Positions 5,946-61,945 of a stretch of DNA of 64,000 nt are shown piece after piece. The notes beneath the pieces were generated by a model. The model ran no database searches. It had not been told where the DNA came from and saw only the letters and a list, made by a program, of their open reading frames with translations. Position numbers and translations under genes: made by a program. The stretch is from a candidate division WWE3 bacterium RAAC2_WWE3_1. Lineage in GTDB: Bacteria > Patescibacteriota > WWE3 > UBA101185 > UBA10185. The stretch covers positions 379,909-443,908 of the forward strand of contig CP006914.1 of assembly GCA_000503835.1 (NCBI GenBank), written 5' to 3'. The first letter of the stretch is position 1. Each line of letters opens with the position of its first letter.

Positions 5946-7227
5946 AAATCTACAAAGCAAAATAATTGAAACTTTAGGCAACGGTCAGGTGGCTTTTTTC
6001 AAATCCGACACGATTTACGGATTACACGCAAAAGCGGACAACCAAAAAGCCGTAGAAAAGATCAATCAGCTAAAAGGGCGGGACATTAATAAACCCTTTA
6101 TTATACTAATCGGGAACATCGGGCAATTGGAAATATTCGGTGTTTCAATAAATAAAAATACCCGAAAATTAATTAAAAAACATTGGCCGGGGAAATTAAC
6201 ACTCGTGCTCAAAGCAAATTTAACCGAAACACTGAAATACTTAGGCCGGGGAGGCGAGACTCTCGCGTTCAGAATGCCTAAGGACAAAGATATTCAGAAC
6301 ATCATAAAGAGCACAGGACCGATAATAAGCACCTCCGCGAACCCTTCGGGAGAAGAACCCGCATCCACGGTAGAGGAAGCAAAAAAATATTTTGGGGACG
6401 GGGTAGATTTATACATTGATTCGGGAAATGTTGAAACCGGGCCTTCTACAGTAATAGATGCTACCGGAGAAGACATTAGGATTTTACGGGAAGGAGAAGT
6501 AAAGCTGTCGCCTATGCCCGCGAACAGCTATAATTCGGCTATGGGCAATAAGATTAATTACGCGGTTGCCACACTAATATTTTTAGCTATAGCTACCGGC
6601 GTTTGGCTTAACATTAAGGAACAAAAAAGCATCGACCATTCGAAATTGCCGGAAAAGGTCGAGCAAAGCAACGGGTTCCAAAGGTGGATCACAAATCTCA
6701 AGAACAAAGATATGGTAATAGAAGCTGACGAATTTACACTCAAAGAAGAGAATGAAATTTACAACACAAAATGGATGAAAGTTTACTCGATAGAAGAAGA
6801 GGGAATGAGAGAAAAATATAATGGGACAATTGAAAGTTTGCGCGGTGTAAAAAAAGTTGTTTTTTCCCCCAGCGAAAGAGAATTAATTGACTACCGCCCG
6901 GAATACAGAGACGGTTACGCACCGAACGAAGTTCATTTTTACGGATTGAAAGAGGATAAGATTATCGATGCGAGAATTTTGGACTGTTCCGCACATGCGA
7001 ATTGTTATTTCGACCGGGCATATTTTTTGGATAATGATGTTTTTGTTATTTCGGAATTTTCAAGAACGATTGATAAGAAGGATGAGGTCTCTGCTGTGTG
7101 CTCGGTGGAGGAAACGTGCGAGTATTCCGTAAAGGTTCACGTTATAGATTTAATAAACAATAAACGCCTGGTTTACGAATCCCGTCCTTTTCAGGCTGTT
7201 ATGACAGAATTGTTGCCGGAGTTGTGA
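5926..7227 (+). CDS. tsaC: L-threonylcarbamoyladenylate synthase (YrdC/TsaC domain) fused to a C-terminal TM helix + ~200-aa domain of unknown function
   Basis: N-terminal ~200 aa matches the YrdC fold (KSDTIYGL, KGR..NKPFIILI, PGKLTLVL, GPIISTSANPSG); TM helix INYAVATLIFLAIATGVWL follows, then an unknown Cys-containing domain; start overlaps upstream gene by 20 nt. Confidence 0.7.
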   Translation: MPLDMNKNLQSKIIETLGNGQVAFFKSDTIYGLHAKADNQKAVEKINQLKGRDINKPFIILIGNIGQLEIFGVSINKNTRKLIKKHWPGKLTLVLKANLTETLKYLGRGGETLAFRMPKDKDIQNIIKSTGPIISTSANPSGEEPASTVEEAKKYFGDGVDLYIDSGNVETGPSTVIDATGEDIRILREGEVKLSPMPANSYNSAMGNKINYAVATLIFLAIATGVWLNIKEQKSIDHSKLPEKVEQSNGFQRWITNLKNKDMVIEADEFTLKEENEIYNTKWMKVYSIEEEGMREKYNGTIESLRGVKKVVFSPSERELIDYRPEYRDGYAPNEVHFYGLKEDKIIDARILDCSAHANCYFDRAYFLDNDVFVISEFSRTIDKKDEVSAVCSVEETCEYSVKVHVIDLINNKRLVYESRPFQAVMTELLPEL

Positions 7228-7372: not shown

Positions 7373-7502
7373 TTTTAAAAACCAATGACGCAAGTCATCG
7401 CTTAGAGACGTGGTTACACCAACTTCAACTAGCTCTTCCAATTCGAGTGGTACAAAAGAGGTATTAACAAATTCCTGATTATTAAATTCATATGGAGGTT
7501 AA

Positions 7503-7874
7503 ATGAAACCACAGAAAATATCCAACGGATTTTTAAGATTCCTGGTAGTGGTATTATCCCTAGTACTTTATTTCTTAAAGGTATCTCTTTCTGGTGCTTA
7601 CGCAGAAGAAATAGGGGCATTGCTCTTTGGGATATTGCTGTGTGGAGTAATTATATACTACCCAATAAGTTACAGATCAAAAGAAACTCCAAAAGAGACG
7701 CGGGTAAATAGACAGCTTAAAACCATGGTTTATGCTTCAGTGATATCCGTTGTCGACTTGTTTGTAGAAGGGAGCTACATAATACTCGGAATCATCGGGG
7801 TGATCTTACTCTACGTCAACATCCAGAAACAGAAACGGGAATTCGTAAATACAAATCCGATAAATAACAATTAG
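7503..7874 (+). CDS. Small 3-4 TM membrane protein (hypothetical; possible immunity/export partner of the adjacent RiPP-like pair)
   Basis: 123-aa ORF with GGAGG 5 nt upstream of ATG; hydrophobic helices FLRFLVVVLSLVLYFL, IGALLFGILLCGVIIYY, YIILGIIGVILLYV; convergent with peptide gene. Confidence 0.5.
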   Translation: MKPQKISNGFLRFLVVVLSLVLYFLKVSLSGAYAEEIGALLFGILLCGVIIYYPISYRSKETPKETRVNRQLKTMVYASVISVVDLFVEGSYIILGIIGVILLYVNIQKQKREFVNTNPINNN

Positions 7875-7951
7875 GTACATTAAAAAGAAAAGACCTGCCT
7901 ACAAGGATTGTGTCCCCATAAACAAGTCTTTCGTTGGTGTGCCCAGCTCGA

Positions 7952-8149
7952 CTAATTCTTACAGTCGGAACACTGGCACTGGCACTCGCAGTCACAGTCG
8001 TAGCAATCGCCGCCGCATTCGCAATCACAGTCTTTTTCGCACTGTTGGCTGCATTGCGTTGCGCAGTCATAATCGCATTCGCAATCCTTGCATTCGGCCT
8101 GGCTTCGGGAGCCCGCAACATGGATACCGAGAGCGCTCAGGGTAGTCAT
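7952..8149 (-). CDS. Cys-rich precursor-like peptide (65 aa; 19-aa leader + 46-aa core with 16 Cys and many Asp/Glu), putative RiPP precursor
   Basis: Sequence MTTLSALGIHVAGSRSQAE-CKDCECDYDCATQCSQQCEKDCDCECGGDCYDCDCECQCQCSDCKN; its start codon overlaps the stop of the upstream rSAM/SPASM gene (ATGA), so the two are translationally coupled. Confidence 0.6.
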   Translation of the reverse strand: MTTLSALGIHVAGSRSQAECKDCECDYDCATQCSQQCEKDCDCECGGDCYDCDCECQCQCSDCKN

Positions 8150-9489
8150 GTCTGCCTTACCTCCTTTCTTCGGATTTTTCTTCCCTCATACACGAGTATA
8201 GCGGGAAGTACGCCTTTCATCAGCTCGCACATAACTGATGGTTCTCCCAATGTGTTTGCGCTTAAAGCAAGCACGGCACATCCACCGCAGCACACATGTC
8301 GCCAAAGGCATTCGCCGCAAACCCCATCTCTACCTAAGGTTTCGACATGAGTTGCAAAAGGCAAGATGCCCCCTCTATCCAAAGCACGCCCCAGAGGCTT
8401 ATCAACGGTCATTTGGCAAAAGCAGACATTAGCTTCTGGGTCAACGGCGAAGTAGTTGCTACCCCCACCACAGATCCTTGTCCTGCTACCGTCAAACTGG
8501 ATACCGTTGAAGCTTAGTCTTGGAAGCTCGTTGTCAGGAAGTAGGCTGACTTGTTCCAAGAATGCAACCATCTTGCTAGTAACGTGGTCTACATTCATGG
8601 TCAAACCCACGCCGTGCTCGTAATCCCGGGACAGGCTTAGACTGAGTGTTAGACCTTTCCCTCTGACATACTGCATTAGCTCCCAAAGCCCGTCTACGTT
8701 CTTATCAGAAATCGTAGTTAGAATGGTTGGTTTAATCCCAGCCAATATCAAAGTTTCGATTCCTTGAAGAACGTGCTCCACACTTGGTCGGCCGTCTGCG
8801 TACTTTCGGGCATCGTTGTAGCTACCAAGCCCATCAAGCGATACCATCACGGAGAAGCCTTTCTCGTTTAGGAAGTGGGCTTTGGCCTCCGTAACCAATG
8901 TACCGTTGGTGATTATCGCCAACCGGACCTTGACACCCAAGGGCTCTAGTTTAGCCTTTGTTTGGTCTACCAAGTAAGCAATTATCTCCGTGTAAATAAG
9001 CGGTTCGCCACCAGCAAATTTCAACTCTACTTCTTTAACCTGTTGGGCCTCTACATCGTTGTGTAAAGCGGTAACGATTGCGTCGCACGCTTCCTTGGTC
9101 AGTCTGCGTTTGCCTTTATGCACATAGCAGTATTCGCACCGCAGATTACAGGCGTCCGTAACATGTATCCAGAGAGCCACGGACTTTGCACGTCTGGCCT
9201 TGGCTTTCTCCTGCTTAGGAACCTTCTTACCAAAAAGCCCCTCTTCCAGGAGAAACTGGATTATGGCGTGTAAAGACTCTTCCCAATCAGTATCATCTCT
9301 TGACTGGAGAATTTCCTGAAGGGTTAAACCGTTTGCCAGTTGTTCGTATACGTACAGAGCCGCGTCTGAAAGTACAAATGCCTTGCCGGAACCGTAAGGA
9401 CTGTAGATCACCGCCTCACCATTTTGTAGGTTTAGCTTAATGTGACCTGACATGTCCAATAACAGTCCCTGATACGTCAGGTCTGTCAT
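8146..9489 (-). CDS. Radical SAM/SPASM-domain peptide-modifying enzyme with N-terminal PqqD/RRE-like leader-binding domain
   Basis: CxxxCxxC at residues 114-121 (ACNLRCEYC); C-terminal auxiliary-cluster Cys pattern C-x16-CxC ... CGECLWRHVCCGGC (Cx2Cx5Cx3C) ... C typical of SPASM; ~100-aa N-terminal extension (SGKAFVLSDAALYVYEQLANGLTLQEILQ) resembles RRE; GGAGAG SD 7 nt upstream of ATG. Confidence 0.85.
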   Translation of the reverse strand: MTDLTYQGLLLDMSGHIKLNLQNGEAVIYSPYGSGKAFVLSDAALYVYEQLANGLTLQEILQSRDDTDWEESLHAIIQFLLEEGLFGKKVPKQEKAKARRAKSVALWIHVTDACNLRCEYCYVHKGKRRLTKEACDAIVTALHNDVEAQQVKEVELKFAGGEPLIYTEIIAYLVDQTKAKLEPLGVKVRLAIITNGTLVTEAKAHFLNEKGFSVMVSLDGLGSYNDARKYADGRPSVEHVLQGIETLILAGIKPTILTTISDKNVDGLWELMQYVRGKGLTLSLSLSRDYEHGVGLTMNVDHVTSKMVAFLEQVSLLPDNELPRLSFNGIQFDGSRTRICGGGSNYFAVDPEANVCFCQMTVDKPLGRALDRGGILPFATHVETLGRDGVCGECLWRHVCCGGCAVLALSANTLGEPSVMCELMKGVLPAILVYEGRKIRRKEVRQT

Positions 9490-9793
9490 GATGATCTCTC
9501 CTTTCAGTTGTATTTTGATTGTTGCCGTAGTTATAGCATAATTGTCGTATAGAGTAAAACCGAATTACCCACATGACTGCTGATTACTGTAGTATAATGA
9601 CCTCAACGATTCATCACTTCAAAGAAAGGAGTAGCACCGTGGGTAGACTTAGTGATTTAGGTATTTACGTATCCAAGTCTGAGGATCGGCATTAAGACTC
9701 AGATTGCCCGGCGGACTGCGAAATACCCGGTGACTGCGACGAAGGGCAGCACCCGCCCCAATCCTAACAGCCTAATAGAAAGAAGGAGCATTT
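9490..9793. promoter_or_regulatory. Divergent intergenic/promoter region of the rSAM operon and the 283-aa gene, containing a direct repeat GACTGCGA (x2, 18-bp spacing) and a small hairpin
   Basis: GACTGCGA at 9714..9721 and 9732..9739; hairpin TCTGAG(9677-9682)/CTCAGA(9698-9703); SD elements for both divergent genes at the edges. Confidence 0.3.
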
Positions 9794-10645
9794 GTGTTTG
9801 TTTTAATGCACATACGCCCCATTTCTCGATATATGTCAATAAGTCTTGGATTAATAAATAAAAATAAAAGAATAAGCGTCACCGAAATTATCGATAGCTA
9901 CGTTAATTCGCTGAACTCTGTTTTCGTTAATTCGGAGCTAGAATCTTTTGTCTACTCCAAAGAAAAAGGAGTTGTTTCATTGTTATTTGAGGGTAACGTT
10001 GAGAATTTCAATACTCAGGACGCAGGTCTACTAATCCAAACAGACAATATACTTGATAGAGAAATCACAACCATAAAAGTAGTTCATGAGAACTCATACA
10101 AATCCAGACAAAATTTATCAAATAGGCTCTCGTTTCTAAAGAGGCTAGAATGCGGTTTTGTACTCCTGGAACATACCGCACTGATAGACGATGTTTCTAA
10201 GAGACCTCCGAGAAAAACTACAAACGGCAACCTCTATTTGCCTGTTGGAGCCATTACAACGTATTTCAATCCCGATTCAACTGATTCGCGCTATGCAAAC
10301 GATAGACGTGGGGTTGATTTCCGAGAGTCAGTTGATTCTCCAGATATTATTACCACCACAGATTTGTATTATTCAAGTTTCATTGATAACAAAAATTTGG
10401 ATGGACTAACTGCTCCAGACCAATGCGGTTTGCAACACTTTACTACAGTAGTACATAATGTCGACGGTAAGCTTAATATATCATTTTTGCAGAATCAGAA
10501 TGCTAAGTTAGCCAGATACTTTTTCGAACCCGAAATTGTATTTTGCAGTAACGATTTTATCCTAAGAACATTTAGGGGTATTAGGTACCCACAGCAAGAG
10601 ATTTCCCTAAAAAATAATTTGCGAAAAGCATCTTTCGAGGTTTAA
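9794..10645 (+). CDS. Hypothetical protein (283 aa), divergent from rSAM gene
   Basis: GTG start with AAGGAG SD 6-7 nt upstream; no recognisable motif. Confidence 0.5.
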   Translation: MFVLMHIRPISRYMSISLGLINKNKRISVTEIIDSYVNSLNSVFVNSELESFVYSKEKGVVSLLFEGNVENFNTQDAGLLIQTDNILDREITTIKVVHENSYKSRQNLSNRLSFLKRLECGFVLLEHTALIDDVSKRPPRKTTNGNLYLPVGAITTYFNPDSTDSRYANDRRGVDFRESVDSPDIITTTDLYYSSFIDNKNLDGLTAPDQCGLQHFTTVVHNVDGKLNISFLQNQNAKLARYFFEPEIVFCSNDFILRTFRGIRYPQQEISLKNNLRKASFEV

Positions 10646-10750
10646 GTACCGGTTATACCTTCGCAAATTCCAGAATGTACATATAATCTGTATTTGTAAT
10701 AAAATAGTTGCAAACATCTTCTCGTGCAGTCGACCAGAAAAGTAAATATT

Positions 10751-12284: not shown

Positions 12285-13085
12285 ATGAGTAGCTATCCCA
12301 AATTTTTTACAAAAGAAGGAAGAACTTTACGCCCTTTAAATATTCCCACGGTTGATGCTTCTTTTTCCAAAGAAAGAGGTCTTGATTCCATCAGTTCCTT
12401 GGTGTCGGAGAGCACCATTTTTCCGAATCATCCGCTAACACCGCGCAAAAACATACTTGAAACTATAAACACGAAGATAGAGCGTATGACAGCGGCCTTA
12501 CCCATTCAAAAATATGCGACCATGGGATTCGCAGTAGCATTAATAACGATTACCGGTATTACAGTTCACGCAGCAGTCGTCCCCCGAAAAATTTCTTTCA
12601 CGGAAGACGACGGTTACAACATTTATTCCTCCAAACCTCTTACCTACGATTACGCAGTTTCAAAGGTTAGCACGAAAGATTCAAGGGCAGAAAAGATCGA
12701 CGGCGTCTTTAACATTTATAAATGCCCTTTAGAAGGACTAGGCGGCAAGTTTGTAGAGGAAGCCGATAAATACGGTATCCCCTGGTGGTTAACAGCTTCC
12801 GTAGCGTTCAAAGAATCCAGCTGTGGCAAGAACACACCTACGGTAGACGGCCGGGAAAGCTACAACGCATGGGGTTGGGGAGTTTACGGTGATAACGTTC
12901 GTTCTTTCGACAACTTCGCCCGTGGTATTGAGACTGTGTCCAAGTACTTTTCCGACAAATTCTATTCGCGGGGTATTGAGGATCCCTGCGAGATTATGAA
13001 AGTGTATACTCCGCCCTCGGACGGTTCCTGGTGCCGCGATGTCGTTCACTTTTCGGAGGTTTTTGACCAGTACCGAACCCTTTAA
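12285..13085 (+). CDS. Membrane-anchored protein with C-terminal lysozyme-like (SLT/glucosaminidase-like) domain; paralog of next gene
   Basis: TM helix MGFAVALITITGITVHAAVV; C-terminal block YGIPWWLTASVAFKESSCGK...YNAWGWGVYGDN...YTPPSDGSW shared with 13152..13724. Confidence 0.5.
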   Translation: MSSYPKFFTKEGRTLRPLNIPTVDASFSKERGLDSISSLVSESTIFPNHPLTPRKNILETINTKIERMTAALPIQKYATMGFAVALITITGITVHAAVVPRKISFTEDDGYNIYSSKPLTYDYAVSKVSTKDSRAEKIDGVFNIYKCPLEGLGGKFVEEADKYGIPWWLTASVAFKESSCGKNTPTVDGRESYNAWGWGVYGDNVRSFDNFARGIETVSKYFSDKFYSRGIEDPCEIMKVYTPPSDGSWCRDVVHFSEVFDQYRTL

Positions 13086-13151: not shown

Positions 13152-13724
13152 ATGTGGAGAAAACCTCGGTTTAAACCGACGGTCATAGTCCTTTCCGCGC
13201 TAGTTTACGCTATTGCGGTACTAGGGGGAATGATCTCCACCAAAGCTGAGGCAAATGGAAAGATTTTAGCATCTTCCGGACAGGCCGAGACAGCTTTGGT
13301 TAAAGTAACTGTCGAGTATAAAAAGGTTAATAGGGAAGAGGTGCTAACAGCCTTCTTCGAAGACTTAAAGTCCCCTCTTAAACCTAATGCAAAGAAATTT
13401 ATCGAAGTTGCTGATAAATACGGGTTAGATTATCGTTTGCTGCCGGCCATTTCATGTATGGAGTCGACCTGCGGTAAGCGTATAATTCCCGAATCATATA
13501 ACCCTTTCGGGTGGGGCATTTACGGAAATACCCATATTGCTTTTGCTTCGTTTGACGAAGCAATCGAAACGGTGGGTAAAGGATTGGCTGAAAACTATGT
13601 TTCTAGGGGATTTGATACTCCCCGTGAAATAGCGCCGATCTACACCCCTCCCAACCACGTTAACTGGCTGAATGGAGTTAATTACTTCTATAGCAGGATG
13701 GAAACGCTGGAAGGACAAATTTAA
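13152..13724 (+). CDS. Membrane-anchored protein with lysozyme-like domain (paralog of 12285..13085)
   Basis: N-terminal TM TVIVLSALVYAIAVLGGMI; conserved block YGLDYRLLPAISCMESTCGK...YNPFGWGIYGNT...YTPPNHVNW. Confidence 0.5.
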   Translation: MWRKPRFKPTVIVLSALVYAIAVLGGMISTKAEANGKILASSGQAETALVKVTVEYKKVNREEVLTAFFEDLKSPLKPNAKKFIEVADKYGLDYRLLPAISCMESTCGKRIIPESYNPFGWGIYGNTHIAFASFDEAIETVGKGLAENYVSRGFDTPREIAPIYTPPNHVNWLNGVNYFYSRMETLEGQI

Positions 13725-13844: not shown

Positions 13845-13878
13845 GGGCGAGTGGCGGAATGGCATACGCGCACGGCTT
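13845..13878 (+). repeat. 34-nt exact duplicate of the 5' half of tRNA-Leu (acceptor 5' strand through the 5' side of the anticodon loop), 98 nt upstream of the intact gene
   Basis: GGGCGAGTGGCGGAATGGCATACGCGCACGGCTT occurs at 13845..13878 and again at 13943..13976; first copy does not continue into a tRNA. Confidence 0.7.
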
Positions 13879-13942
13879 TAGTTTACTAACGTAAGCCGCC
13901 CAAGGATATAGTACTGAGAAACTTTAAAACTGAATAGTTCGG

Positions 13943-14026
13943 GGGCGAGTGGCGGAATGGCATACGCGCACGGCTTAGAACCGTGTTCCGAAAGGATTGG
14001 AGGTTCGAGTCCTCTCTCGCCCACCA
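13943..14026 (+). tRNA. tRNA-Leu (anticodon UAG), long variable arm, CCA encoded
   Basis: Acceptor GGGCGAG/CTCGCCC, anticodon stem CACGG/CCGTG, loop CTTAGAA, variable stem-loop TCCGAAAGGA, T-loop TTCGAGT, 3' ACCA. Confidence 0.85.
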
Positions 14027-14099
14027 TATTTTATGTTGGTTTAACAACCCCATTTTAACAAAACCCAAAAGGGACTCGAACTTTTGATACAATTAAGTT

Positions 14100-14720
14100 A
14101 TGGCAACACCTATCACTCACATAGTACTAACAGAAAAAGTTTTTAATAATCTATTTAATAATTTTAATAAAAAAGATTTTATAATCGGGACTAGTTTTCC
14201 AGATATAAGATACCTAGGAACAATAGGTAGAGAGAAAACTCATATTAATGTAAATAACCTTGTAGATCTAAGAGACAATAATCCATTCTTTGCAGGAATG
14301 AAGTTTCACACGTTAGTAGATAAAATCAGGGAAGATTTCTTACTTTCGAGAAATATCTATTCAAAATGTCCAGAATCCAAATACATAACTAAATCTATAA
14401 AGTTTGTTGAAGATAAAATTCTCTATGATAAAGTTACTAATTGGATTAGCTACCAAAATTATTTCGATAATTTACTACAGGAAGAGCTCGAATCAGGTGC
14501 AGGGAAAGAAGCTGTTTCTCAATGGCATGGCGTACTAAAGAAATATTTTGCAAAGAAACCAAACGAAGAAAGCATTCGTACTTTTGTTGCAGAAATCAAT
14601 TTACCAGAAAACGTAGCGACAGAGATACAAAATAACGTGAATGTGATTGAAAATATTCCAGAAATTAATATGTACGTAGAAGATTTATACAACACTTTTG
14701 AAGAGTTACTTAAAAAGTAA
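14100..14720 (+). CDS. Hypothetical protein (206 aa), strongly AT-rich coding sequence (islet gene)
   Basis: ORF immediately downstream of tRNA-Leu; composition visibly more AT-rich (~30% GC) than surrounding genes; no motif recognised. Confidence 0.5.
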   Translation: MATPITHIVLTEKVFNNLFNNFNKKDFIIGTSFPDIRYLGTIGREKTHINVNNLVDLRDNNPFFAGMKFHTLVDKIREDFLLSRNIYSKCPESKYITKSIKFVEDKILYDKVTNWISYQNYFDNLLQEELESGAGKEAVSQWHGVLKKYFAKKPNEESIRTFVAEINLPENVATEIQNNVNVIENIPEINMYVEDLYNTFEELLKK

Positions 14721-14821
14721 AATTAGTTCGCGCATCCTCACAAATGGTCCACCATATTTTCTGCATTGATACATCATCATATACAAAATAAAGATCGAAC
14801 TTTTTAAGCTATAATTAACAC

Positions 14822-15538
14822 ATGGTTACTAAAGGGATTACTGTACTGAAAAATATTATCGAAACTAATCCGCTATGGTATCAAGATGACCAAATAAAAT
14901 ACTTCATCAACTTATTCAATAAAAATACACTTACAAAGCGGGAAAAGTCAGATAAGAATAATTTTAAAACTTTATTGAAAGAGACTATCTTTTATATAGA
15001 TAGCAGTGGTTATAATTGGGATCAATGGCGACTGCCTATCGAGTATGCAGTAATACACCATACTTCAAGTTCACCAACAATAGGCTTGAAAGAACTAAAT
15101 GTGTTAGGACTGAGACTTTACATTCAACAGTATTTAACTGACAAAGATGTTAAAGATCAACCGCTTTATTCGGGACATTATTGGGTGGGACAACCCGAAA
15201 TTATAGAAAACATGACATTTGTTAGCTACCACTTTTTAGTAAGACCTAACGGTAAAATCATCCAGCTAACCGATACTTCTGCGTATCTATGGCATGCGGG
15301 AAATCTTGAAATAAATAGAAAATCTATAGGAATAGCGTTAGCTGGGAAATTTATAGATAAAGAACCAACTGCGGAAGCATTAATCTCAGCAGCAAGCATC
15401 ATAAAGAAATATAATATAGATGCGAATAAAGTCTTTGGTCACAAGGAGGTGATAAAGAAAGATCTACTTGGAGAGACAGAATGCCCGGGAAACTTATTTT
15501 CTGAAGGCTGGAAAAGTAAATTAATTTTCAATCTGTGA
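14822..15538 (+). CDS. N-acetylmuramoyl-L-alanine amidase (Amidase_2/PGRP-type, endolysin-like)
   Basis: Zn-ligand pattern AVIHHT ... WHAGN ... GHKEV ... ECPG characteristic of Amidase_2; AT-rich. Confidence 0.8.
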   Translation: MVTKGITVLKNIIETNPLWYQDDQIKYFINLFNKNTLTKREKSDKNNFKTLLKETIFYIDSSGYNWDQWRLPIEYAVIHHTSSSPTIGLKELNVLGLRLYIQQYLTDKDVKDQPLYSGHYWVGQPEIIENMTFVSYHFLVRPNGKIIQLTDTSAYLWHAGNLEINRKSIGIALAGKFIDKEPTAEALISAASIIKKYNIDANKVFGHKEVIKKDLLGETECPGNLFSEGWKSKLIFNL

Positions 15539-15641
15539 TAGCACAATAGTTCTCACTTGGTCGCTAGGAACCCACCACACATACTATCTATTCAGGTGAG
15601 TAATCCTGCCATCAAATCCGATTGACACTCTGTACATAGTA

Positions 15642-15911
15642 TTGTACATTCAAAACATGGACAAACTAATGTCGTTATCAAACGCCAGGGCATCTTTTCC
15701 CGAGATAGTCCGTAAAGTAAGCACTACTCTAAGTAGGGTAGTTATTACTGTAAACGGACAGCCAAAGGCTACACTGGTCAGCGCCGAAGAATTAGAATCT
15801 CTCGAAGAAACTGCAGAGGTTCTCTCAATTCCCGGAGCTAAAGACAGCATAATAAAAGGGTTGAAACAAGCTAAAAAGGGTACCGGAACCGCACTTTCTG
15901 ATATTGAGTAA
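15642..15911 (+). CDS. Type II antitoxin, Phd/YefM family
   Basis: Small acidic protein with Phd/YefM-like N-terminus (LSNARASFPEIVRKVSTTLSRVVITVNGQPKATLVS) immediately upstream (6-bp gap) of a RelE/ParE-like gene; true start may be ATG at 15657. Confidence 0.75.
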   Translation: MYIQNMDKLMSLSNARASFPEIVRKVSTTLSRVVITVNGQPKATLVSAEELESLEETAEVLSIPGAKDSIIKGLKQAKKGTGTALSDIE

Positions 15912-15917
15912 GACAAT

Positions 15918-16166
15918 ATGCAGGTAATTATTACCCCGACCGCATTAAAACAATATAAACACCTTCAAAAGTCCGACCAAACAAAAATTAAAAATAAAAT
16001 TCTTTTATTGGAAAAGCACCCCACGGAAGGAAAGAAACTAGCGGGAAAATTAGCTGAAGTAAGATCACTAAGAGCATGGCCCTACAGAATACTATATTAC
16101 GTGGGTAAAAAAGAAAGAAAAATATTTATCGTAACCATTGCGCACAGGCAGGGAGTGTATAAATAG
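15918..16166 (+). CDS. Type II toxin, RelE/ParE family
   Basis: 82-aa basic protein, C-terminal RelE-like region WPYRILYYVGKKERKIFIVTIAHRQ. Confidence 0.75.
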   Translation: MQVIITPTALKQYKHLQKSDQTKIKNKILLLEKHPTEGKKLAGKLAEVRSLRAWPYRILYYVGKKERKIFIVTIAHRQGVYK

Positions 16167-16223
16167 AGTAGGTGTTTTACGCTCACTGTTTCCTTCCCAC
16201 TAAATATCTCATACAATTAGCAT

Positions 16224-17498
16224 ATGAGATCTGCCACAAAACTTCCATCCATTTTAAAAAGCCCGGGATTGCCAAAAGCCGTCGTCAGCCCTTTCAACTC
16301 CTTCGCCATCTTAATAATGTTTATAACACTGGGTGATGCACTTATGGCGTACACAGTGCCGATATACTTAGACAGTGTCCTGCATAATACGTTTCTTATG
16401 GGATTAGTTATGGCTACGTCTTCCGCAGCCGGCCTACTGTTCGACTTTATAGTGAGCAAGAAATTCCGCACCAAAAATTACAAGTACTTTATGCACACCA
16501 CTTTTATTTTCGCCATATTATTTCCTGTGGCACTATTATTTTTCCCCCCGCACTTGGTATTTATTGTCATCGCTATGGCTCTTTGGGGAATATATTTCGA
16601 AACCAAGATATATGCCGAGTTTCATTTTATCGACCGACACGTACCTAAAGACGAGTACTCAAAATCGTGGGGACTAGTCAGCGTCCTTAATTCCTCGGCC
16701 TACTTTTTCGGATCATTAATTGCTACGTTAATAATCAGCATTTCGCTGAAATTCACATTCGCGACGGCACTTATACTATTCGGGTTGACTTACCTAATTT
16801 TTTCATTGCTGGCGATCAAAACAGAGTCTAATAAACCGGAAAACTTTGAAGAATCCTCCGGAATAACAAATTTATCTTTTAGACAGACGTTCCGGGTCTG
16901 GAGAACACTCCTAGGAAAAATTTGGCCGTTATGGACATTTAATTTTGTCATCACTTTAGTCGACGCCGCATTTTGGACCGTAGGTATAATTTTTTCCGAG
17001 CAAATGCGTGGCACCCATCCTGCAGGTGGTTTGATAATCACAGCCTACATGTTCCCACCTATTTTTATGGGATTCCTCTTGCCTAAAATAACGGCCAGAC
17101 TGGGTAAGAAAAAAACAGCTTTTATAAGCGCGCTCTTTGCTGCCACTTTTGTGCTGCTTTTTGGATTGGCTTCAAACGTCTACCTGCTTATCTTTCTGGT
17201 TTTTTCAGGGTCGGTTCTTCTTTCTATTGCAAACCCTGCCCTATACGCCGCCTACGAAGATTATGTTTCAAGACTGGGTAAATTTAATAACGACATGATA
17301 GGGCTGGAACAAACAGCGAGTAGTGTGGGTTACGTGGTCGGGCCGCTATTAGCCGGAGGGATTGCAGCAACGGCAGGTGTTCAGAATACTTTTGTTTTTA
17401 CCGGAGCGCTGCTGTTGGTAACCTCTTTGGTGTGCCTAGCCGTAGTCCCCAGAAAAATTAGAATGCCTCAGAAAGAGCTTGTCTCGGATTTGTATTAA
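16224..17498 (+). CDS. MFS transporter
   Basis: 424 aa, ~12 predicted TM helices in 6+6 arrangement with central loop (ESNKPENFEESSG). Confidence 0.75.
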   Translation: MRSATKLPSILKSPGLPKAVVSPFNSFAILIMFITLGDALMAYTVPIYLDSVLHNTFLMGLVMATSSAAGLLFDFIVSKKFRTKNYKYFMHTTFIFAILFPVALLFFPPHLVFIVIAMALWGIYFETKIYAEFHFIDRHVPKDEYSKSWGLVSVLNSSAYFFGSLIATLIISISLKFTFATALILFGLTYLIFSLLAIKTESNKPENFEESSGITNLSFRQTFRVWRTLLGKIWPLWTFNFVITLVDAAFWTVGIIFSEQMRGTHPAGGLIITAYMFPPIFMGFLLPKITARLGKKKTAFISALFAATFVLLFGLASNVYLLIFLVFSGSVLLSIANPALYAAYEDYVSRLGKFNNDMIGLEQTASSVGYVVGPLLAGGIAATAGVQNTFVFTGALLLVTSLVCLAVVPRKIRMPQKELVSDLY

Positions 17499-17584
17499 TA
17501 TATTTGACTGAAATACTAAAAATTCGTAGAATTCCATTGCACATTGATAACCTATAGAACACACATGAGAACACGGAGGACGAA

Positions 17585-18340
17585 ATGGATAACAAACCCG
17601 CAAAGCGCACCTCGACAACGGTTATTACCACTGGCAAAGGACAGAACAAGTCAATCGTTGCAAGTAAGCCGGTAATTACCAGTCAAACTGCTAAAATCGC
17701 CGGCGGTAACCAGGTAGACATTGTCTTTGTCTTTGACACCACTGGATCTATGGATGACGAAATTGACGGGCTGCTCTCGACCTGTACCCAATTCGTGAGC
17801 GAAACCCAAAGTATGGGATTGGACGCAAATTTTGAGCTTATCTCGTTTGGTGACATTTCGGTACCCGGAGGCGGCGACAAGATTGAAGTGGTAACCCCTC
17901 TTACGGGAGAAATTGAACGCATCAAATTCGGGTTAAGCCACATCCCGCGAAACAACGGGTTCGGCAATGTCGGGGAAACTTGTCTAGAAGCAATTCAAGA
18001 AGCCTTCAGGACACAATACCGACCAAAATCGGTAAAGGTGTTGATTTTGATTACCGACGAACCGGCCATCACCGAACGTTTCACTCCTGAACAAATCATC
18101 AGGGAACTCAAGCATCGGGAGTATCTGACTTTCGTTATAGCCATCGACACTCCGTACTACAGAGACATGGCCTTGAATAACGGAGGTATTTGGAAACAAA
18201 TAAGCTCCGACACCGACCTTTCCGAGATACTCAGGATATTCAACGAGATAGCAAAGAAGGTCTCCGTGGTAACAAAGCAAGTTCACCTTCTTGGAGGAAG
18301 TGTGAGCAAATACCTGGCACTCAATCCGCCAAAGCGCTGA
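17585..18340 (+). CDS. von Willebrand factor A (vWA) domain protein
   Basis: MIDAS motif DIVFVFDTTGSMDDE (DxTxS) plus downstream Thr/Asp ligand regions (LITDEP). Confidence 0.8.
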   Translation: MDNKPAKRTSTTVITTGKGQNKSIVASKPVITSQTAKIAGGNQVDIVFVFDTTGSMDDEIDGLLSTCTQFVSETQSMGLDANFELISFGDISVPGGGDKIEVVTPLTGEIERIKFGLSHIPRNNGFGNVGETCLEAIQEAFRTQYRPKSVKVLILITDEPAITERFTPEQIIRELKHREYLTFVIAIDTPYYRDMALNNGGIWKQISSDTDLSEILRIFNEIAKKVSVVTKQVHLLGGSVSKYLALNPPKR

Positions 18341-18425
18341 TTAAAAGGGGAGTGGGATTTTGAAACTCCCACTCTCAAATTCATGACTCGATTATTTTCA
18401 TGGCCGTATTCCTTAGGAGGAGAAC

Positions 18426-19226
18426 ATGCCCACAGACAGCTCTGACTACTATGCCATTCTTGGTGTAGCGAAGAACGCACCCCTTGACGAGATTAAGGCC
18501 CAATACAAAAAGCTGGTAAAGGAAAACCACCCTGATCAGTACAACGGCCTCAAGTCCAGGTATGAGCAAAATGGAGACAACGCTCTCTTAAAGCTTATAA
18601 AGGAAAAAATCCTGGAATCAGAGAGGTTTTGTAAACTCCTCAATGAGGCCTTCGGCATGCTATCGGATCCTGTTAAGAGGAAGCAGTACGATGCACATAT
18701 TTTTGAACCCGTAATTGAGGCACCAAGGGTAATCGTATTTCCGAGACGACTTTCATTCGGAAATTTGCTGGAAGGTCAAAAAAAATCTTCTTTCTTTACA
18801 ATCAAAAATGAGGAAGGTCGTGCAGCATCCATCGATATTAATTGGGAAGGGGAAAAACCCGATTGGGGTGATCTAGTCGTCGAGCCAGATGAGAGCGCTA
18901 CATTTCCCATCAAAATTACAGTGGCTGTCAACACTACAGGAATCCCATCCGGTCAGAAAAGCGACAGGGTAGTGGTCATCGTAGACGGCGTAACGTTTGG
19001 GGTTGAGGTACTATTGAACGTTGAGAAAAGAGTGGAACTGCGTACAACACCCCCAACATACAGACCTTCCATAGCCACGCCTGCTGCAAGTACATTGGGG
19101 TCTATGACAACGCCAAGGAAACCCTCGAGATGGGTGATACCACTTATCCTCCTTCTGATAATGATTTGTGGCGGAGCGCTTATTGCTGATGTGCAGAACG
19201 GAATTGTCCTCCTAACCAACTGGTAA
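18426..19226 (+). CDS. J-domain (DnaJ-like) protein with C-terminal membrane anchor
   Basis: N-terminal J-domain DYYAILGVAKNAPLDEIKAQYKKLVKENHPDQ with HPD tripeptide; C-terminal TM WVIPLILLLIMICGGALIA; no Zn-finger/CTD of canonical DnaJ. Confidence 0.75.
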   Translation: MPTDSSDYYAILGVAKNAPLDEIKAQYKKLVKENHPDQYNGLKSRYEQNGDNALLKLIKEKILESERFCKLLNEAFGMLSDPVKRKQYDAHIFEPVIEAPRVIVFPRRLSFGNLLEGQKKSSFFTIKNEEGRAASIDINWEGEKPDWGDLVVEPDESATFPIKITVAVNTTGIPSGQKSDRVVVIVDGVTFGVEVLLNVEKRVELRTTPPTYRPSIATPAASTLGSMTTPRKPSRWVIPLILLLIMICGGALIADVQNGIVLLTNW

Positions 19227-19324
19227 CAACGGGTGACTCGGTTGGATTTATCCAATTCACAATCCAAAACCAGACGGGTATACCGAAAGCCACACACAGT
19301 ATTGCGGAAGGAGGTTAAACCATA

Positions 19325-19366
19325 CCCCCGAAATTTTTTAACCATGAAAATTTCGGGGGATTTTTT
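19325..19366 (+). terminator. Rho-independent terminator (13-bp perfect stem + T6)
   Basis: CCCCCGAAATTTT-ttaaccatg-AAAATTTCGGGGG followed by ATTTTTT, ~100 nt downstream of the J-domain gene. Confidence 0.7.
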
Positions 19367-19531
19367 ATCACCCAGCAATTCCTGACCATCGGTAATCCCT
19401 CATACCCTAAATATTTTACTGACTACATCTGTGATGTGCCTTTTGGTAGTACCCTAAAAGAACTTACGAACTTACTTTTCTAACAAAAACCCTAGCATTC
19501 CAACCCCCTAATGTGCTAATATACTCAGGTC

Positions 19532-45528: not shown

Positions 45529-46392
45529 CTATAAATCGAAGGGCGTTTCCGGTGTTTCGGTGGCCCCCGCCGGTTGTTCTACAGGTACCTCTTCGGCAGC
45601 TTCCCCCGCAGGAGCGGGAGTTTCCGTACTCTCAACTACTTCGCTTTCTGCAATATCAGGATTAAGAAATTCGTAATATCTATAATCTTTTATGCTGTTT
45701 ATAAATGCGACAAAAGCCGGGGACGTAATATCCAAGGTGATGGGGTCATCCGTTACCGCAACAGATTGAACATACATATACGGAGAATCAACATTCACGT
45801 TAACATTCACCAAACCAGTTTCCTGCGTACTGGAATCCTCACCAAATCTGAATGTGGTTACATAGGCTATTCTTGCAGATTTTTCGATTTCCTGCATAAA
45901 CACTACCATTTGGTCATAAGAACCGGTCACGGTCGCCGCAACATTAACAATACCGCTTATATCTTCCTTCCTCTGGTCAGAGATAGCATCCGCGGCAGCT
46001 CCGGTTGCCCCCGAATAGGAGTAGTTCAAACGATCGACGGACATACCGGCGTTGGTCGCGATTTGGTGTATCTGGTCAAGAAGCTGTGGGACGTTAGATT
46101 CGGAAACGTACAGCTTCTCGACAAGATCGGCATTCTCCTGCAGAACGGTATTAAAATCTTTCATTTTAGAAAGAGCCGAAGCTTTGGTATTTAACACTTC
46201 CAGCACAGCGGTCTGTGAAGTAAGCTGTGTCTTAAGTTCGTTAACCTTGGTGTAGGTAGGTTTGATATATAAAAAGAACAATAAAGCGGTAACCGCCAAA
46301 CCAATGATAGGGAAGACAAAATCCACAATAATGTCTTTTATGGCACCTATGTTTATTTCTTTTATTTTATTTTCTATGTTCTCTTCGTTCAT
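45529..46392 (-). CDS. pilO: Type IV pilus assembly protein PilO-like (with acidic/Pro-rich C-terminal tail)
   Basis: Single N-terminal TM, coiled-coil, position directly downstream of pilM-pilN. Confidence 0.6.
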   Translation of the reverse strand: MNEENIENKIKEINIGAIKDIIVDFVFPIIGLAVTALLFFLYIKPTYTKVNELKTQLTSQTAVLEVLNTKASALSKMKDFNTVLQENADLVEKLYVSESNVPQLLDQIHQIATNAGMSVDRLNYSYSGATGAAADAISDQRKEDISGIVNVAATVTGSYDQMVVFMQEIEKSARIAYVTTFRFGEDSSTQETGLVNVNVNVDSPYMYVQSVAVTDDPITLDITSPAFVAFINSIKDYRYYEFLNPDIAESEVVESTETPAPAGEAAEEVPVEQPAGATETPETPFDL

Positions 46393-46402
46393 ATTTCTTC
46401 GT

Positions 46403-46978
46403 TTACAATTTTATTTTCGACGTATCGTAGTTAACCACAATAAAAAACCTGACCGTACTTTTATTTTGATCCAGTGTCACGGAATTAAGTTTTACTTCGG
46501 TAAAAAGTTCTTTTAGTTCTGCGTCACCCCCGGGAAAATCTTTGTTTAAAAGGCTGTTTATAAAATTGGCGATCAGAATATAATTGTCGGCGTCCCCCGT
46601 GTAATTTACGATTCCGTCCTTTATATCCATGGAGTCTATTCTTACACCCTCAGGCTGTCTCACTTTCAGTTCGGCCAATAAACGGGAGTAATGCGGTCTT
46701 TCGGCAATAACTTTGGAGATAGAATTATATTTCAGGTCCAAATTTCTCACAACTATCTCGGTGGCGGAAAGAGATTTTATTTTTGCTCGCTGACTTTCAA
46801 TCTGCGAATTTACGTCGTTTACCTTCGTGGATATCTCCGAATGTGCGTAGTAAAGATATCCGGAAACGCCCAGCGCCGCAACTGTCAACAGAATAAAAAG
46901 CACCGTAGTGCCCTTAACAGCCTTGCCTTTGGCTTGATACTGTATTTCTTCCTGCGGGATAAGGTTAATATTTTCCAT
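46403..46978 (-). CDS. pilN: Type IV pilus assembly protein PilN
   Basis: N-terminal INLIPQEE motif and single TM typical of PilN; follows pilM. Confidence 0.7.
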   Translation of the reverse strand: MENINLIPQEEIQYQAKGKAVKGTTVLFILLTVAALGVSGYLYYAHSEISTKVNDVNSQIESQRAKIKSLSATEIVVRNLDLKYNSISKVIAERPHYSRLLAELKVRQPEGVRIDSMDIKDGIVNYTGDADNYILIANFINSLLNKDFPGGDAELKELFTEVKLNSVTLDQNKSTVRFFIVVNYDTSKIKL

Positions 46979-48010
46979 TTAAACCTCTCTTAGAGCCAAA
47001 CCTACGGCGGTAGAATACATCGGACCGTCCTGGCTCAGATCCTTTCTTCGTGGCTCTAACTTTTGTGAAAACTGGAAATTGGCCAGCGGATTGGCAAGTT
47101 GTACCTCAAAATCAACATTTTTTGCTACATAAGTTAAAAGTTCAGGCATTAGGGCAGTACCTCCGGTTAGTATCAACCTCTTAATGTTAGCAGAGCTATT
47201 ATGCTTTGTGAAGAATACTGTTGCTCTTTTTATCTCAAGAATCAGGTTGTCCATTATAGGTCTTATTACGTTAAATATTTTGCCCTCGGCCTGCATGGGA
47301 TCCATTCCATAAACTTTTTTGTATTCTTCAGCCTGTTGAACATCCAAGTTCAGCTCCTGCTGGATTGCCTTTGTAATTATGTCCCCTCCCACCGGAATGC
47401 TTCTGGTAAAGCGTACCGCGCCGCCGTAGGTAACGACTATTATCGATCCCGAGAATCCCAAATCCATAACTATAGTCCCGAGAGGGGCGTCGGCCGAATC
47501 TCCTAAGACCCTGCCCAAAGCAAGAGTTTCGGGTTCTATTGCGTAAGGCACGAGCTTGGCTTTTTTAGCGATGGCAACATACCTTTCTAAAACATCTTTT
47601 TTGGCGGCGACTACCTGAACATTTATTTTATCTTTTTCGGTAAGATCGGGGTCGAGTCTTTGATATGAGAGGTTTATCTGGTCAAGTGGCAGGGGAATAT
47701 ATTGCTCAGCCTCATATCTCACGGCACTTCTCAGCTCCTTATCACTCATTGCGGGCACTTTTATAACGCGCATAAATACCTGACTCTCGTCCAAACCCAT
47801 TACAACATGGGAGGTTCCGAATCCCATTTCCTTGAAAAACTCGGCTATATGCTCGGCGATCAGATCCATATCTTCTCTTTTATCGGACAAAAAGTTGACC
47901 TTGGGATTTTCGTACGTGCCTATATTGGAAATTATCAACCCTTCTTTACGTTTATCCAGTTCTACGGCTCTAAATGTACTTCTGCCAAAATTTAAACCTA
48001 CAATGGGCAT
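46979..48010 (-). CDS. pilM: Type IV pilus assembly ATPase-like protein PilM (actin-like fold)
   Basis: N-terminal IGLNFGRSTFRAVEL and actin/FtsA-like phosphate motifs (IVMDLGFSGS). Confidence 0.85.
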   Translation of the reverse strand: MPIVGLNFGRSTFRAVELDKRKEGLIISNIGTYENPKVNFLSDKREDMDLIAEHIAEFFKEMGFGTSHVVMGLDESQVFMRVIKVPAMSDKELRSAVRYEAEQYIPLPLDQINLSYQRLDPDLTEKDKINVQVVAAKKDVLERYVAIAKKAKLVPYAIEPETLALGRVLGDSADAPLGTIVMDLGFSGSIIVVTYGGAVRFTRSIPVGGDIITKAIQQELNLDVQQAEEYKKVYGMDPMQAEGKIFNVIRPIMDNLILEIKRATVFFTKHNSSANIKRLILTGGTALMPELLTYVAKNVDFEVQLANPLANFQFSQKLEPRRKDLSQDGPMYSTAVGLALREV

Positions 48011-48078
48011 ACTAAAATTCTACTATCCTTTCAGGACTCAGACAAGACCGATTTTACGTTTATTCTGCGACTTTTAGG

Positions 48079-48900: not shown

Positions 48901-48911
48901 ATCAATATGGC

Positions 48912-49915: not shown

Positions 49916-49920
49916 AGTTA

Positions 49921-50469: not shown

Positions 50470-50490
50470 ATATAAATACTAGCACAAAAA

Positions 50491-50982: not shown

Positions 50983-50984
50983 GA

Positions 50985-51512: not shown

Positions 51513-51524
51513 GGTGTTGCAAAA

Positions 51525-52067: not shown

Positions 52068-52121
52068 GATATTTTAAAAACTTACCGGGCTCAATAAAGA
52101 GCCCGGAAGTATATAACCTAA

Positions 52122-52685: not shown

Positions 52686-52831
52686 CTGCTTCTCACCCCC
52701 CTCCTTCTATCTAATCCAATTCCAGATTTTAAAATTAACTTGGGCAGTTTATACATCTCTTCTTAAATTATGACTTCGCCCATAATGAGTGTCAATACGA
52801 TTCCGCCTTTATCGGGCAGGCTTTGAATAAA

Positions 52832-53710: not shown

Positions 53711-53711
53711 A

Positions 53712-57776: not shown

Positions 57777-57837
57777 AAGTTATTTATAACACACCCTGCT
57801 ATAGTCAACAAACAAATTTTCTAGTTTAATATACATA

Positions 57838-61943: not shown

Positions 61944-61945
61944 AC

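Follow-up and report, generated by a model that had tools for sequence, protein, structure and literature searches.

In the genome of the candidate division WWE3 bacterium RAAC2_WWE3_1, a tRNA-Leu(TAG) gene is followed by two AT-rich genes, the first encoding a 206-residue protein (orf206) and the second an Amidase_2 protein, and then by a Phd/YefM-ParE/RelE type II toxin-antitoxin (TA) pair. These features lie in a 64,000-nt stretch of contig CP006914.1 (assembly GCA_000503835.1, positions 379,909 to 443,908 of the forward strand), hereafter the window, in whose numbering all coordinates are given unless a comparison locus is named (Table 1). A first-pass annotation, made from the letters of the window, had placed the tRNA and all four protein genes correctly, coordinates included, and had read the segment as the remnant of a prophage or integrative element, or else as a defence islet. 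Comparison with related genomes leads instead to an interpretation in which the two AT-rich genes are cassettes, stacked at the 3' end of the tRNA gene and delimited by a 30-nt boundary element. Confidence is high for the islet and for the element, and is graded below for the mechanism and for the enzyme functions.

Table 1. Features in and around the islet at tRNA-Leu(TAG), in window coordinates.
Feature	Position	Strand	Basis or remark
5'-half copy of tRNA-Leu(TAG) (tRNA positions 1-34)	13845-13878	+	34/34 identical to 13943-13976; outside the insertion
tRNA-Leu(TAG)	13943-14026	+	ARAGORN; Rfam tRNA 57.2 bits; last 7 nt CCCACCA (14020-14026) are the left edge of the insertion
Leader 1, about 70 nt, promoter-like and semi-conserved, with TACAAT at 14088-14093, ahead of orf206	14027-14099	+	
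Whole segment missing from empty-site relatives: two cassettes and the TA module	14029-16202	+	blastn against L089/L090/L091
orf206, 206 aa, member of an all-helical family of about 205 aa, putative metal-dependent hydrolase	14100-14720	+	
30-nt boundary element, copy 1, AGTTCGCGCATCCTCACAAATGGTCCACCA	14725-14754	+	within the orf206-amidase spacer
Leader 2, with TATAAT at 14810-14815, ahead of the amidase gene	14755-14821	+	read from sequence
Amidase_2 protein, 238 aa (N-acetylmuramoyl-L-alanine amidase/PGRP-type)	14822-15538	+	PF01510
Diverged boundary-element variant AGTTCTCAC-TTGGTCGCTAGGAA-CCCACCA, in a 9+14+7 layout	15548-15577	+	anchored pattern
TA promoter TTGACA-17-TACATT, overlapping two TGTACA palindromes (likely operator)	15622-15650	+	promoter scan
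Phd/YefM antitoxin, 89 aa from TTG 15642 or 80 aa from ATG 15669	15642-15911	+	
ParE/RelE-superfamily toxin, 82 aa, start 6 nt past the antitoxin stop	15918-16166	+	

Close relatives were reached through the trigger-factor protein cluster at 90% identity, and the same locus is present in other assemblies (comparison loci carry L-numbers). In three independent contigs (L089-L091) the site is empty, with the gene order g313, g266, g190, tRNA-Leu(TAG), a major facilitator superfamily (MFS) gene, trigger factor and ClpP, and the upstream region of the MFS gene begins about 20 nt past the tRNA. Homology detected by blastn between the window and these three contigs breaks at 14028, at the 3' end of the tRNA, and resumes at 16203, 21 nt before the ATG of the MFS gene; the 2,174 bp from 14029 to 16202 are therefore an indel, which fits the extent of the islet as first annotated. 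Other relatives share this one site, g266-g190-tRNA-Leu(TAG), and hold different genes in it. In L082-L086 the slot contains a 118-aa open reading frame (ORF), a radical SAM gene, a 273-aa ORF and the element, followed by the Phd-ParE pair; in L088 it contains a NUDIX gene, a nucleotidyltransferase gene and the element, again followed by the Phd-ParE pair; and in L094 it contains a YecM-like gene, the element and a 169-aa ORF. In the more distant L004, tRNA-Leu(TAG) is followed by a 242-aa ORF on the minus strand, an orf206 homolog and pyrH. At this position, then, the islet genes are absent from relatives or replaced in them, and are not conserved across the lineage.

The impression that the two genes after the tRNA are more AT-rich than the rest of the window is borne out by calculation, both for total GC and for GC at third codon positions (GC3). 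Relative to the 63 window ORFs of at least 100 aa (mean GC 0.431, standard deviation 0.034), orf206 has a GC of 0.298 and a GC3 of 0.242 (z -3.87 and -3.85) and the amidase gene a GC of 0.342 and a GC3 of 0.305 (z -2.59 and -2.64), which makes them the bottom two of the 63. Likewise, the ten lowest-GC sliding windows of 1,440 nt in the whole 64 kb all start within 13851-14301. The TA pair is not clearly atypical: the GC of the Phd gene (0.42) is normal, and that of the ParE gene (0.357) is mildly AT-rich, but this is a short gene. Together, the atypical composition, the absence from close relatives and the boundary at the 3' end of a tRNA gene support the conclusion that orf206 and the amidase gene form a strain-specific insertion, exchanged horizontally, at the tRNA-Leu 3' end.

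The boundary element was first recognised when the spacer between orf206 and the amidase gene was compared with the junctions in relatives. Its consensus is AGTTCGCACATCCT[G/C]ACA[G/A]ATGGCCCACCA, 30 nt long, of which the last 7 bp are CCCACCA. Copy 1 is unique in the window (0 expected in shuffles; nhmmer E 1.2e-8). In L082-L086 and L088 a nearly identical element closes the variable cargo on its right side, a short way ahead of the TA promoter; in L004 the element stands directly before the leader and orf206. Besides the window, some 25 contigs carry it (L004, L015, L079-L082, L088 and L092-L109), and it was found on 18 metagenomic contigs; none was found in viral contigs. A fuzzy scan of all 1.41 Mb of fetched loci returned 59 matches versus 0 in shuffles, and the alignment of 38 unique copies is 80-100% conserved over exactly 30 nt, dropping to background at once on both sides. 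The second, diverged copy in the window starts 10 nt past the amidase stop codon and keeps the 9+14+7 layout of the element; the amidase gene of Collierbacteria is followed by a comparable variant.

Two candidate identities for the element were rejected. As a structured RNA or attC-like hairpin it would be expected to fold, and it folds no better than shuffled sequence (z -0.16 and +0.69); nor does it match any Rfam family, and its two main variants, …CCTGACAGATGG… and …CCTCACAAATGG…, lack the covariation expected of a stem. As a decayed tRNA 3' end it would have to resemble a tRNA along its length, and the fetched tRNAs have no more in common with it than GTTCG and CCCACCA, with a best local score of 10 out of 30. 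Its orientation is that of the tRNA even where the cargo genes lie on the opposite strand, as in L095, L097 and L103. Because the orientation tracks the tRNA and not the genes, and because there is no structure beyond chance and no match in Rfam, the evidence points to a DNA site rather than an mRNA element.

The cassettes also share a leader of about 70 nt, with the pattern …TTGT.ATA.CAAC…ATTTTTA…ACCCAAGA.GG…TCGAACTTTT…TAnAAT. Leader 1 (nhmmer E 3.5e-16, with this copy itself in the model) is homologous to the leader that follows tRNA-Leu in L088 and L081, and also to the leader that follows the element in L004, L079, L097, L098 and L101. Leader 2 resembles leader 1 (TCGAACTTTT...TAnAAT), with a weak nhmmer E of 0.34. 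Since the leader follows either a tRNA end or an element, the two are interchangeable as the left boundary of a cassette.

Repeated elements form arrays, with five copies in L102, four in L079/L080, three in L101 and L096, and two in L015, L081, L092 and L097. Within an array the copies have the same orientation and divide units of 1-3 genes, at a spacing of 0.6-7.6 kb that is mostly below 2 kb. The arrays begin at tRNA-Leu(TAG) in the window, L082, L088, L094, L095 and L004, at tRNA-Leu(TAA) in L015, L081, L093, L098, L103 and L106, at tRNA-Ile in L105 and at tRNA-Tyr in L102. Every array-initial tRNA ends in CCCACCA, versus 35 of the 126 tRNAs in the fetched loci. The cargo is diverse, comprising GNAT and radical SAM proteins, nucleotidyltransferases, NUDIX proteins, HAD and MBL hydrolases and histidine phosphatases, as well as a peptidase S51, an SDR protein, a polysaccharide deacetylase, an ECF sigma factor and a LigT-like protein. 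The array cargos examined contained no gene for an integrase or a transposase and none from phage.

The same gene can occupy different arrays. The amidase gene occurs in five unrelated contexts (the window, L081, L096, L079 and L074), bracketed in each by an element or a tRNA end. L081 is a close parallel to the window: tRNA-Leu(TAA), a leader, an HD-domain gene, an element (7895), a leader, the amidase gene (8001-8717) and another element (8736). In L096 the amidase is 73% identical and a canonical element lies 17 nt past its stop codon; in L079 a decayed element and a canonical leader precede the gene; and in L074, from Collierbacteria, tRNA-Ala…CCACCA stands on one side of it and AGCTCGCAATATTGTTCATAACAGCCCACCA, a variant of the element specific to that lineage, on the other. 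For orf206, the homology between the window and L004 (78% at the nucleotide level) begins exactly at CCCACCA, which belongs to a tRNA body in the window and to an element in L004, and a decayed element lies downstream of the L004 homolog. Both AT-rich genes are cassettes of this element-bounded type of array.

Two unusual tRNA calls were noted in the fetched loci. L081 has, at 6538-6613 and about 0.5 kb upstream of its array-initial tRNA-Leu(TAA), an ARAGORN tRNA with a CTA anticodon, labelled tRNA-Pyl and of amber-suppressor type; in L006 the anticodon of one tRNA is TTA, and the call is labelled 'Stop'.

The first-pass annotation was right that a type II TA module follows the AT-rich genes. 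The antitoxin matches PF02604 at 57.3 bits (cutoff 29.8) and TIGR01552 at 46.1 bits, and gene callers give it 80-89 aa; the toxin matches PF05016 at 40.9 bits (cutoff 23) and the RelE-like phrog_1213 at 56.4 bits, and bears the NCBI label RelE/ParE family toxin. The window's ParE protein is identical to AHB40348.1, as its trigger factor is to AHB40352.1. The promoter is sigma-70-like and conserved in L082 and L088, and homology with these relatives starts at 15621. The suggestion that the module belongs to the acquired AT-rich DNA is not supported. The pair is common to L082-L088 at 76% nucleotide identity, with 79% for the MFS gene and 85.5% for g313-g190, and because its divergence is about that of the adjacent MFS gene, it is an older resident that was not acquired with the AT-rich genes. 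It lies distal to the array. Of the lineages with this MFS flank, the three that bear cassettes have the module and the empty one does not. For chromosomal integrons, TA cassettes have been proposed to counter-select the deletion of arrays, and by analogy an addiction or stabilising role for the module at the distal end of this array is plausible.

Some short motifs were seen near the module. After the last element in L082 (8058-8075) stands ATAGAATTTCC, which resembles the post-tRNA sequence TAATAGGTTTATTTCC of the empty-site L089 (8637-8660), and the motif GTTTATTTCC recurs past ParE in L082 (8640-8660). The TA module looks inserted into, or deleted from, the upstream region of the MFS gene between short ATTTCC repeats.

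Taken together, we consider that the islet is probably a local case of a tRNA-anchored gene-cassette array in WWE3/Katanobacteria-like bacteria of the Candidate Phyla Radiation (CPR), made of integrase-less cassettes that bear their own promoters. Two single-gene units, leader-orf206 and leader-Amidase_2, each closing with the 30-bp element, would be stacked from the CCCACCA end of tRNA-Leu(TAG). The proposed mechanism builds on what is directly observed, namely the insertion with its boundaries, the element, the arrays with their diverse cargo and a cassette in differing contexts, and we place moderate confidence in it. Site-specific recombination between the 30-bp element and sites ending in CCCACCA would bring cassettes in, remove them and exchange them, with the tRNA end serving as attB and the element plus leader of a circular cassette as attP. 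Crossover would occur in or near the shared heptamer, catalysed by a recombinase encoded elsewhere and acting in trans. Serial integration of this kind would yield the arrangement [tRNA…CCCACCA]-leader-gene-[23 nt + CCCACCA]-leader-gene-[23 nt + CCCACCA]. Once DNA has been taken up, homologous recombination at conserved elements or flanks may provide an extra route. The low GC of the cassettes would reflect their origin in a pool of related CPR genomes with lower GC; the nearest relative of orf206 sits in a genome of GC 0.325, and the GC of the amidase gene is constant at 0.33-0.36 across hosts of GC 0.36-0.44. The older Phd/YefM-ParE/RelE module, distal to the cassettes, would probably stabilise the array.

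Several observations weigh against this reading. The search for a recombinase, which covered the surroundings of the arrays and, of the 878-kb genome, part of the window, came up empty. The identity between tRNA end and element is short, at 7 nt plus GTTCG, and there are no clear inverted core-binding arms at CCCACCA. The variant that follows the amidase gene in the window is strongly diverged and was missed by the hidden Markov model (HMM), its assignment coming from position and layout, and no motif lies 3' of ParE, so that the TA pair cannot itself be shown to be a cassette. Furthermore, orf206 homologs in more than 60 other loci are ordinary chromosomal genes with no element, and family members are lower in GC than their flanks in 89% of 65 loci (mean -0.04), so part of the low GC of orf206 is a family trait.

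The arrays bring to mind several known systems, each of which differs from them in some principal respect. They resemble integron cassette arrays, especially sedentary chromosomal integrons with near-identical attC repeats such as the Vibrio VCRs, in being arrays of small, diverse and mostly single-gene cassettes separated by a recurring site of one orientation, in their variation among strains, in their association with TA modules and in the lack of a recombinase gene within the cassettes. Yet there is no intI or attI, and no tyrosine recombinase was found upstream in the window, L081, L015, L093, L094 or L106; the arrays start instead at the 3' end of a tRNA. Unlike the folded imperfect palindrome of integrons, the repeat is an unstructured 30-mer, and the WWE3-type cassettes carry their own TATAAT-type leaders, bear cargo on either strand and belong to a CPR lineage. 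Cis-mobilizable elements (CIMEs) are reportedly known from work on ICESt and CIMEs of Streptococcus thermophilus, as are tandem arrays of genomic islands at tRNA/att sites. Their architecture, which the cassettes fit, is one of units without an integrase that lie between direct repeats of att type, pile up at a tRNA 3' end and are presumably mobilised in trans, with an intact tRNA at the left junction and att copies at the internal ones. The cassette units, however, are tiny (0.6-2 kb, 1-3 genes), and their 30-nt repeat shares only 7 nt and GTTCG with the tRNA while being highly conserved across genomes and across different tRNAs; to our knowledge, these cassettes have no parent element that bears an integrase. 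Classical tRNA islands differ as well, since the repeat of the arrays does not reproduce the 3' end of the tRNA.

The pdif modules of Acinetobacter plasmids are small modules, often of TA or accessory genes, with sites of about 28-30 bp, served by a recombinase encoded elsewhere. Module size, site length and a recombinase acting in trans are features the cassettes would share with them, whereas pdif sites have an 11-6-11 XerC/XerD architecture and alternate in orientation, and the present element is directly repeated, has no dif-like ATAA/TTAT arms and is chromosomal and anchored at tRNA genes. Minimal mobile elements (MMEs) of the naturally competent Neisseria occupy a fixed slot between conserved genes with varying cassettes. 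The islet likewise occupies a fixed slot whose cassettes vary among strains, but MMEs have neither a conserved inter-cassette repeat nor a tRNA anchor, and their exchange is purely homologous.

A small acquired islet at a tRNA gene is an ordinary object; what sets this one apart is the boundary element and the arrays. Our literature searches found no description of such arrays in CPR bacteria, and the RAAC2_WWE3_1 genome paper mentions no mobile elements (PMC3812714). More tentatively, WWE3/Katanobacteria-like CPR bacteria might possess an integron-like but mechanistically distinct form of cassette capture, in which an unlinked recombinase would serially insert promoter-bearing cassettes of 1-3 genes, each closing with a conserved, unstructured 30-bp site, at tRNA ends with CCCACCA (Leu, Ile, Tyr, Ala), and a TA module would guard the array, a broader proposal that we hold to be possible rather than probable. 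CPR/Patescibacteria have tiny, streamlined genomes, and little is known of how they acquire and shuffle accessory genes. If the proposal is correct, it would give these ultra-small genomes a swappable rack of accessory genes, offer a concrete mechanism for strain-level gene flux in uncultured episymbionts and widen the range of cassette-capture platforms beyond integrons. The 30-mer could also be used as a tag with which to mine the accessory gene pool of these lineages from metagenomes.

The main alternative is a hotspot of homologous replacement, comparable to the Neisseria MMEs, in which natural transformation and RecA exchange the contents of the slot between a tRNA-Leu/g190 flank and an MFS/TA flank, and the element is a conserved intergenic signal (a terminator, regulator or processing site) or a homology anchor. 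Flanks that are 76-86% conserved at the nucleotide level among relatives surround cargo that is wholly different, no recombinase was found in the tested loci, and the model explains replacement of a whole slot. The window also encodes a cluster of type IV pilus/competence type at 45529-63019 (PilO-like protein, PilM, prepilin peptidase, T2SSF/PilC-like protein and a PilB/T-like T2SSE ATPase), which bears on DNA uptake. We nevertheless judge this explanation unlikely, although it merits weight: it does not explain the sharp conservation of 30 nt in dozens of unrelated contexts, the orientation tied to the tRNA and not to the genes, the beginning of arrays at tRNAs that end in CCCACCA, the start of the window-L004 homology at that heptamer or the presence of the amidase gene at non-homologous sites, and a 30-nt anchor is short for efficient RecA recombination. 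Alternatively, orf206 and the amidase gene could be ancestral, AT-rich by family, and differentially lost in relatives. The low GC of the orf206 family noted above fits such a history, as does the orf206 gene that L004 has downstream of the same tRNA-Leu(TAG), and a deletion between short ATTTCC repeats could have produced the L089 junction. The deviation of orf206 in the window (-0.124), however, is about 2.5 standard deviations beyond the family mean, and its GC3 is equally low; relatives hold unrelated cargo in the slot, not a mere gap; the amidase gene is found at other tRNAs and in other contexts elsewhere; and L004 has another cassette between the tRNA and orf206. Differential loss is therefore improbable as an account of the locus.

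The two readings favoured by the first-pass annotation fare worse. A degraded prophage or integrative element at tRNA-Leu would comprise an endolysin, a gene of no assigned function, a TA module and a partial tRNA copy, and the position beside a tRNA, the AT-rich composition and an Amidase_2 domain of a kind common in endolysins are what one would expect of it. But neither the islet nor the variant cargos contain integrase, structural, holin or replication genes. Searches for Phage_integrase, resolvase and transposase found none among the called genes from about -10 kb to +10 kb, in the variant cargos or in 10 further window ORFs; no phage gene was seen in the islet or its neighbours; and the only PHROG matches in the islet are the amidase domain and the TA pair. 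Neither the amidase nor orf206 had a tblastn match in 50,697 phage genomes, the element does not occur in the viral contigs, and the amidase homologs lie in chromosomal CPR contexts. No direct repeat of the tRNA 3' part (attR) was found at the distal end, where the downstream boundaries share only CCCACCA with the tRNA, and the tRNA fragment is a 5' half that lies upstream and is also present in genomes with an empty site. We hold the prophage reading to be very improbable. Defence islands often contain type II TA modules and hydrolases, and on that likeness, and on the variability of the locus, the islet could be an anti-phage defence or abortive-infection module of TA genes and hydrolases. 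PADLOC, however, matched 0 families for six proteins (the four of the islet and the VWA/DnaJ pair described below), none of 70 orf206 loci has an amidase gene or a TA pair nearby, and the cargo elsewhere is metabolic or accessory, all of which makes a defence function scarcely credible. The tRNA-anchored cassette array remains the reading adopted here.

The partial tRNA duplicate, which had been adduced as a sign of integration, does exist, with 34 nt at 100% identity, but it corresponds to the 5' half of the tRNA gene and stands upstream of it, at a distance of 98 nt. As a 5' half that lies upstream and is present in empty-site genomes and in the distant L004, it is not a scar of the islet. 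The spacing between copy and tRNA is 52 nt in L094, 98 nt in the window, 99 nt in L082 and in the empty-site L089, and 106 nt in L004. Copies occur in at least five lineages (13845-13878 in the window, L004 6737-6772, L082 5152-5185, L089 8454-8487, and L094 on the minus strand); each is identical to the tRNA of its own genome and each breaks off in the anticodon loop, and that of L004 forms a perfect 106-nt tandem repeat. A TATAAT box stands just upstream of the partial copy, and the copy is therefore probably part of a pre-tRNA leader; the tRNA-Leu(TAA) loci have no such copy. The candidate of a tRNA-like RNA without a T arm was rejected, as conservation of the closing CGCCC seen in the window does not extend to L082 or L089.

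The amidase itself (protein identical to AHB40346.1) matches PF01510 at 74.7 bits (cutoff 26), and its best matches in the PDB are PGRP domains (E 1e-7). Among 24 family members, the Zn ligands H79/H80 and H207 are invariant and C221 is nearly so. The domain and the His/His/Cys ligands are those of the Amidase_2/PGRP/AmpD/T7-lysozyme type of amidase; the protein differs from these in a unique, family-specific N-terminal module of about 65 aa (PLWYQ), in not being an AmpD equivalog and in having no phage context. It has no signal peptide. The full-length family is small, with 29 homologs, all from CPR bacteria, and these lie among cellular chromosomal genes or cassette elements. The earlier label 'phage-type' is accurate as to the domain superfamily, which the protein shares with endolysins (PHROG lysis families match the domain, best E 5e-13), but not as to specific relatives: no close phage endolysins and no holin or spanin neighbours were found, and in IMG/VR there are only two remote relatives, of the catalytic core alone. 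A role together with the MFS gene as an AmpD/AmpG recycling pair was also considered and rejected. The protein reaches 27 bits with the AmpD model, whose cutoff is 143, and the MFS protein has generic MFS matches and no AmpG model; in addition, the TA pair separates the two genes, and relatives that have no amidase keep the MFS gene. The 238-aa protein is a CPR-specific, mobile peptidoglycan amidase that should not be annotated as a prophage endolysin, though confidence in the enzyme functions of both this protein and orf206 is low to moderate.

In the case of orf206, the designation 'orphan' had to be dropped. A word-indexed search returned at least 148 homologs, from Nomurabacteria, WWE3, Shapirobacteria, Yanofskybacteria and others, and 70 loci were located in reference genomes of Patescibacteria, Dependentiae, Chloroflexota, Chlamydiales and Myxococcota. 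An exhaustive profile search extended the family to 1,097 representative clusters, 421 of them at E <= 1e-30, nearly all of about 205 aa and aligned from residue 1. Seven residues are invariant (H7, D35, H48, H70, D74, E104 and W142), the N-terminal MA-P-TH is nearly so, and the AlphaFold model is all-helical with a predicted local distance difference test (pLDDT) score of 95.8. The only recurrent Pfam family in HMM searches is Zn_dep_PLPC, below threshold: orf206 scores 18.7 bits against PF00882 (Zn-dependent phospholipase C), under the gathering score of 26.8, and sub-threshold matches occur in 9 of 67 family members (best E 3.4e-4). Superposition on phospholipase C (PLC) and P1 nuclease covers only about 112 residues at 10-12% identity, and relative to the Zn-dependent PLC and S1-P1 nuclease families orf206 is shorter (about 205 aa) and has no signal peptide. 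A PDB profile search gave only artefactual matches to designed TPR repeats, Foldseek found no match in the PDB, and the fold had no match in BFVD. We read orf206 as a putative, distant PLC/P1-nuclease-like metallohydrolase. A family of more than 1,000 clusters that has no Pfam family would thereby gain an annotation, as candidate PLC-like metallohydrolases.

Two further ideas about the family were not sustained. A conserved functional pairing of orf206 with the amidase was rejected, as 0 of the 70 other loci has an amidase gene or TA pair within +/-8 kb. Adjacency to tRNA genes as a general trait of orf206 homologs was also rejected: the enrichment is weak (9 of 67 versus about 4 expected, P 0.017, against a biased background), and the element is absent there. 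The closest homolog in a reference genome, that of L004 (73% identity), has one in-frame stop, at codon 87 (L004 8259-8261), where the window encodes Tyr; this is either a pseudogene or an assembly error, and an intact version of 72% identity exists as P0004.

Outside the islet, the window has a second strain-specific indel of about 2 kb, at 17482-19500 between the MFS gene and trigger factor, which adjoin each other directly in close relatives. It contains a gene for a VWA-domain protein (17585-18340) and one for a DnaJ-domain protein with a C-terminal transmembrane segment (18426-19226). Its GC is normal, it does not carry the 30-nt element and neither of its proteins matches PADLOC.

The region past tRNA-Pro (7373-10700) is also variable, differing from L082 5338-8000 and from L089 3737-5400. 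In the window it holds a radical SAM gene (8146-9489, minus strand) and g279 (9806-10645), and homologs of both are found after tRNA-Leu in L082-L086, at 68% nucleotide identity for the radical SAM gene and as a short 79% match at the 3' end of g279. Since the homologs of the genes at tRNA-Pro lie after tRNA-Leu in these relatives, the block has moved between two slots adjacent to tRNAs.

By contrast with these variable features, two paralogous genes (12285-13085 and 13152-13724, 34% identity) are kept directly upstream of tRNA-Leu(TAG) in the window, L082, L089, L094 and L004. Each product has an N-terminal hydrophobic segment and a weak, sub-threshold match to Glucosaminidase (PF01832), and they are probably cell-wall hydrolases of the core genome.

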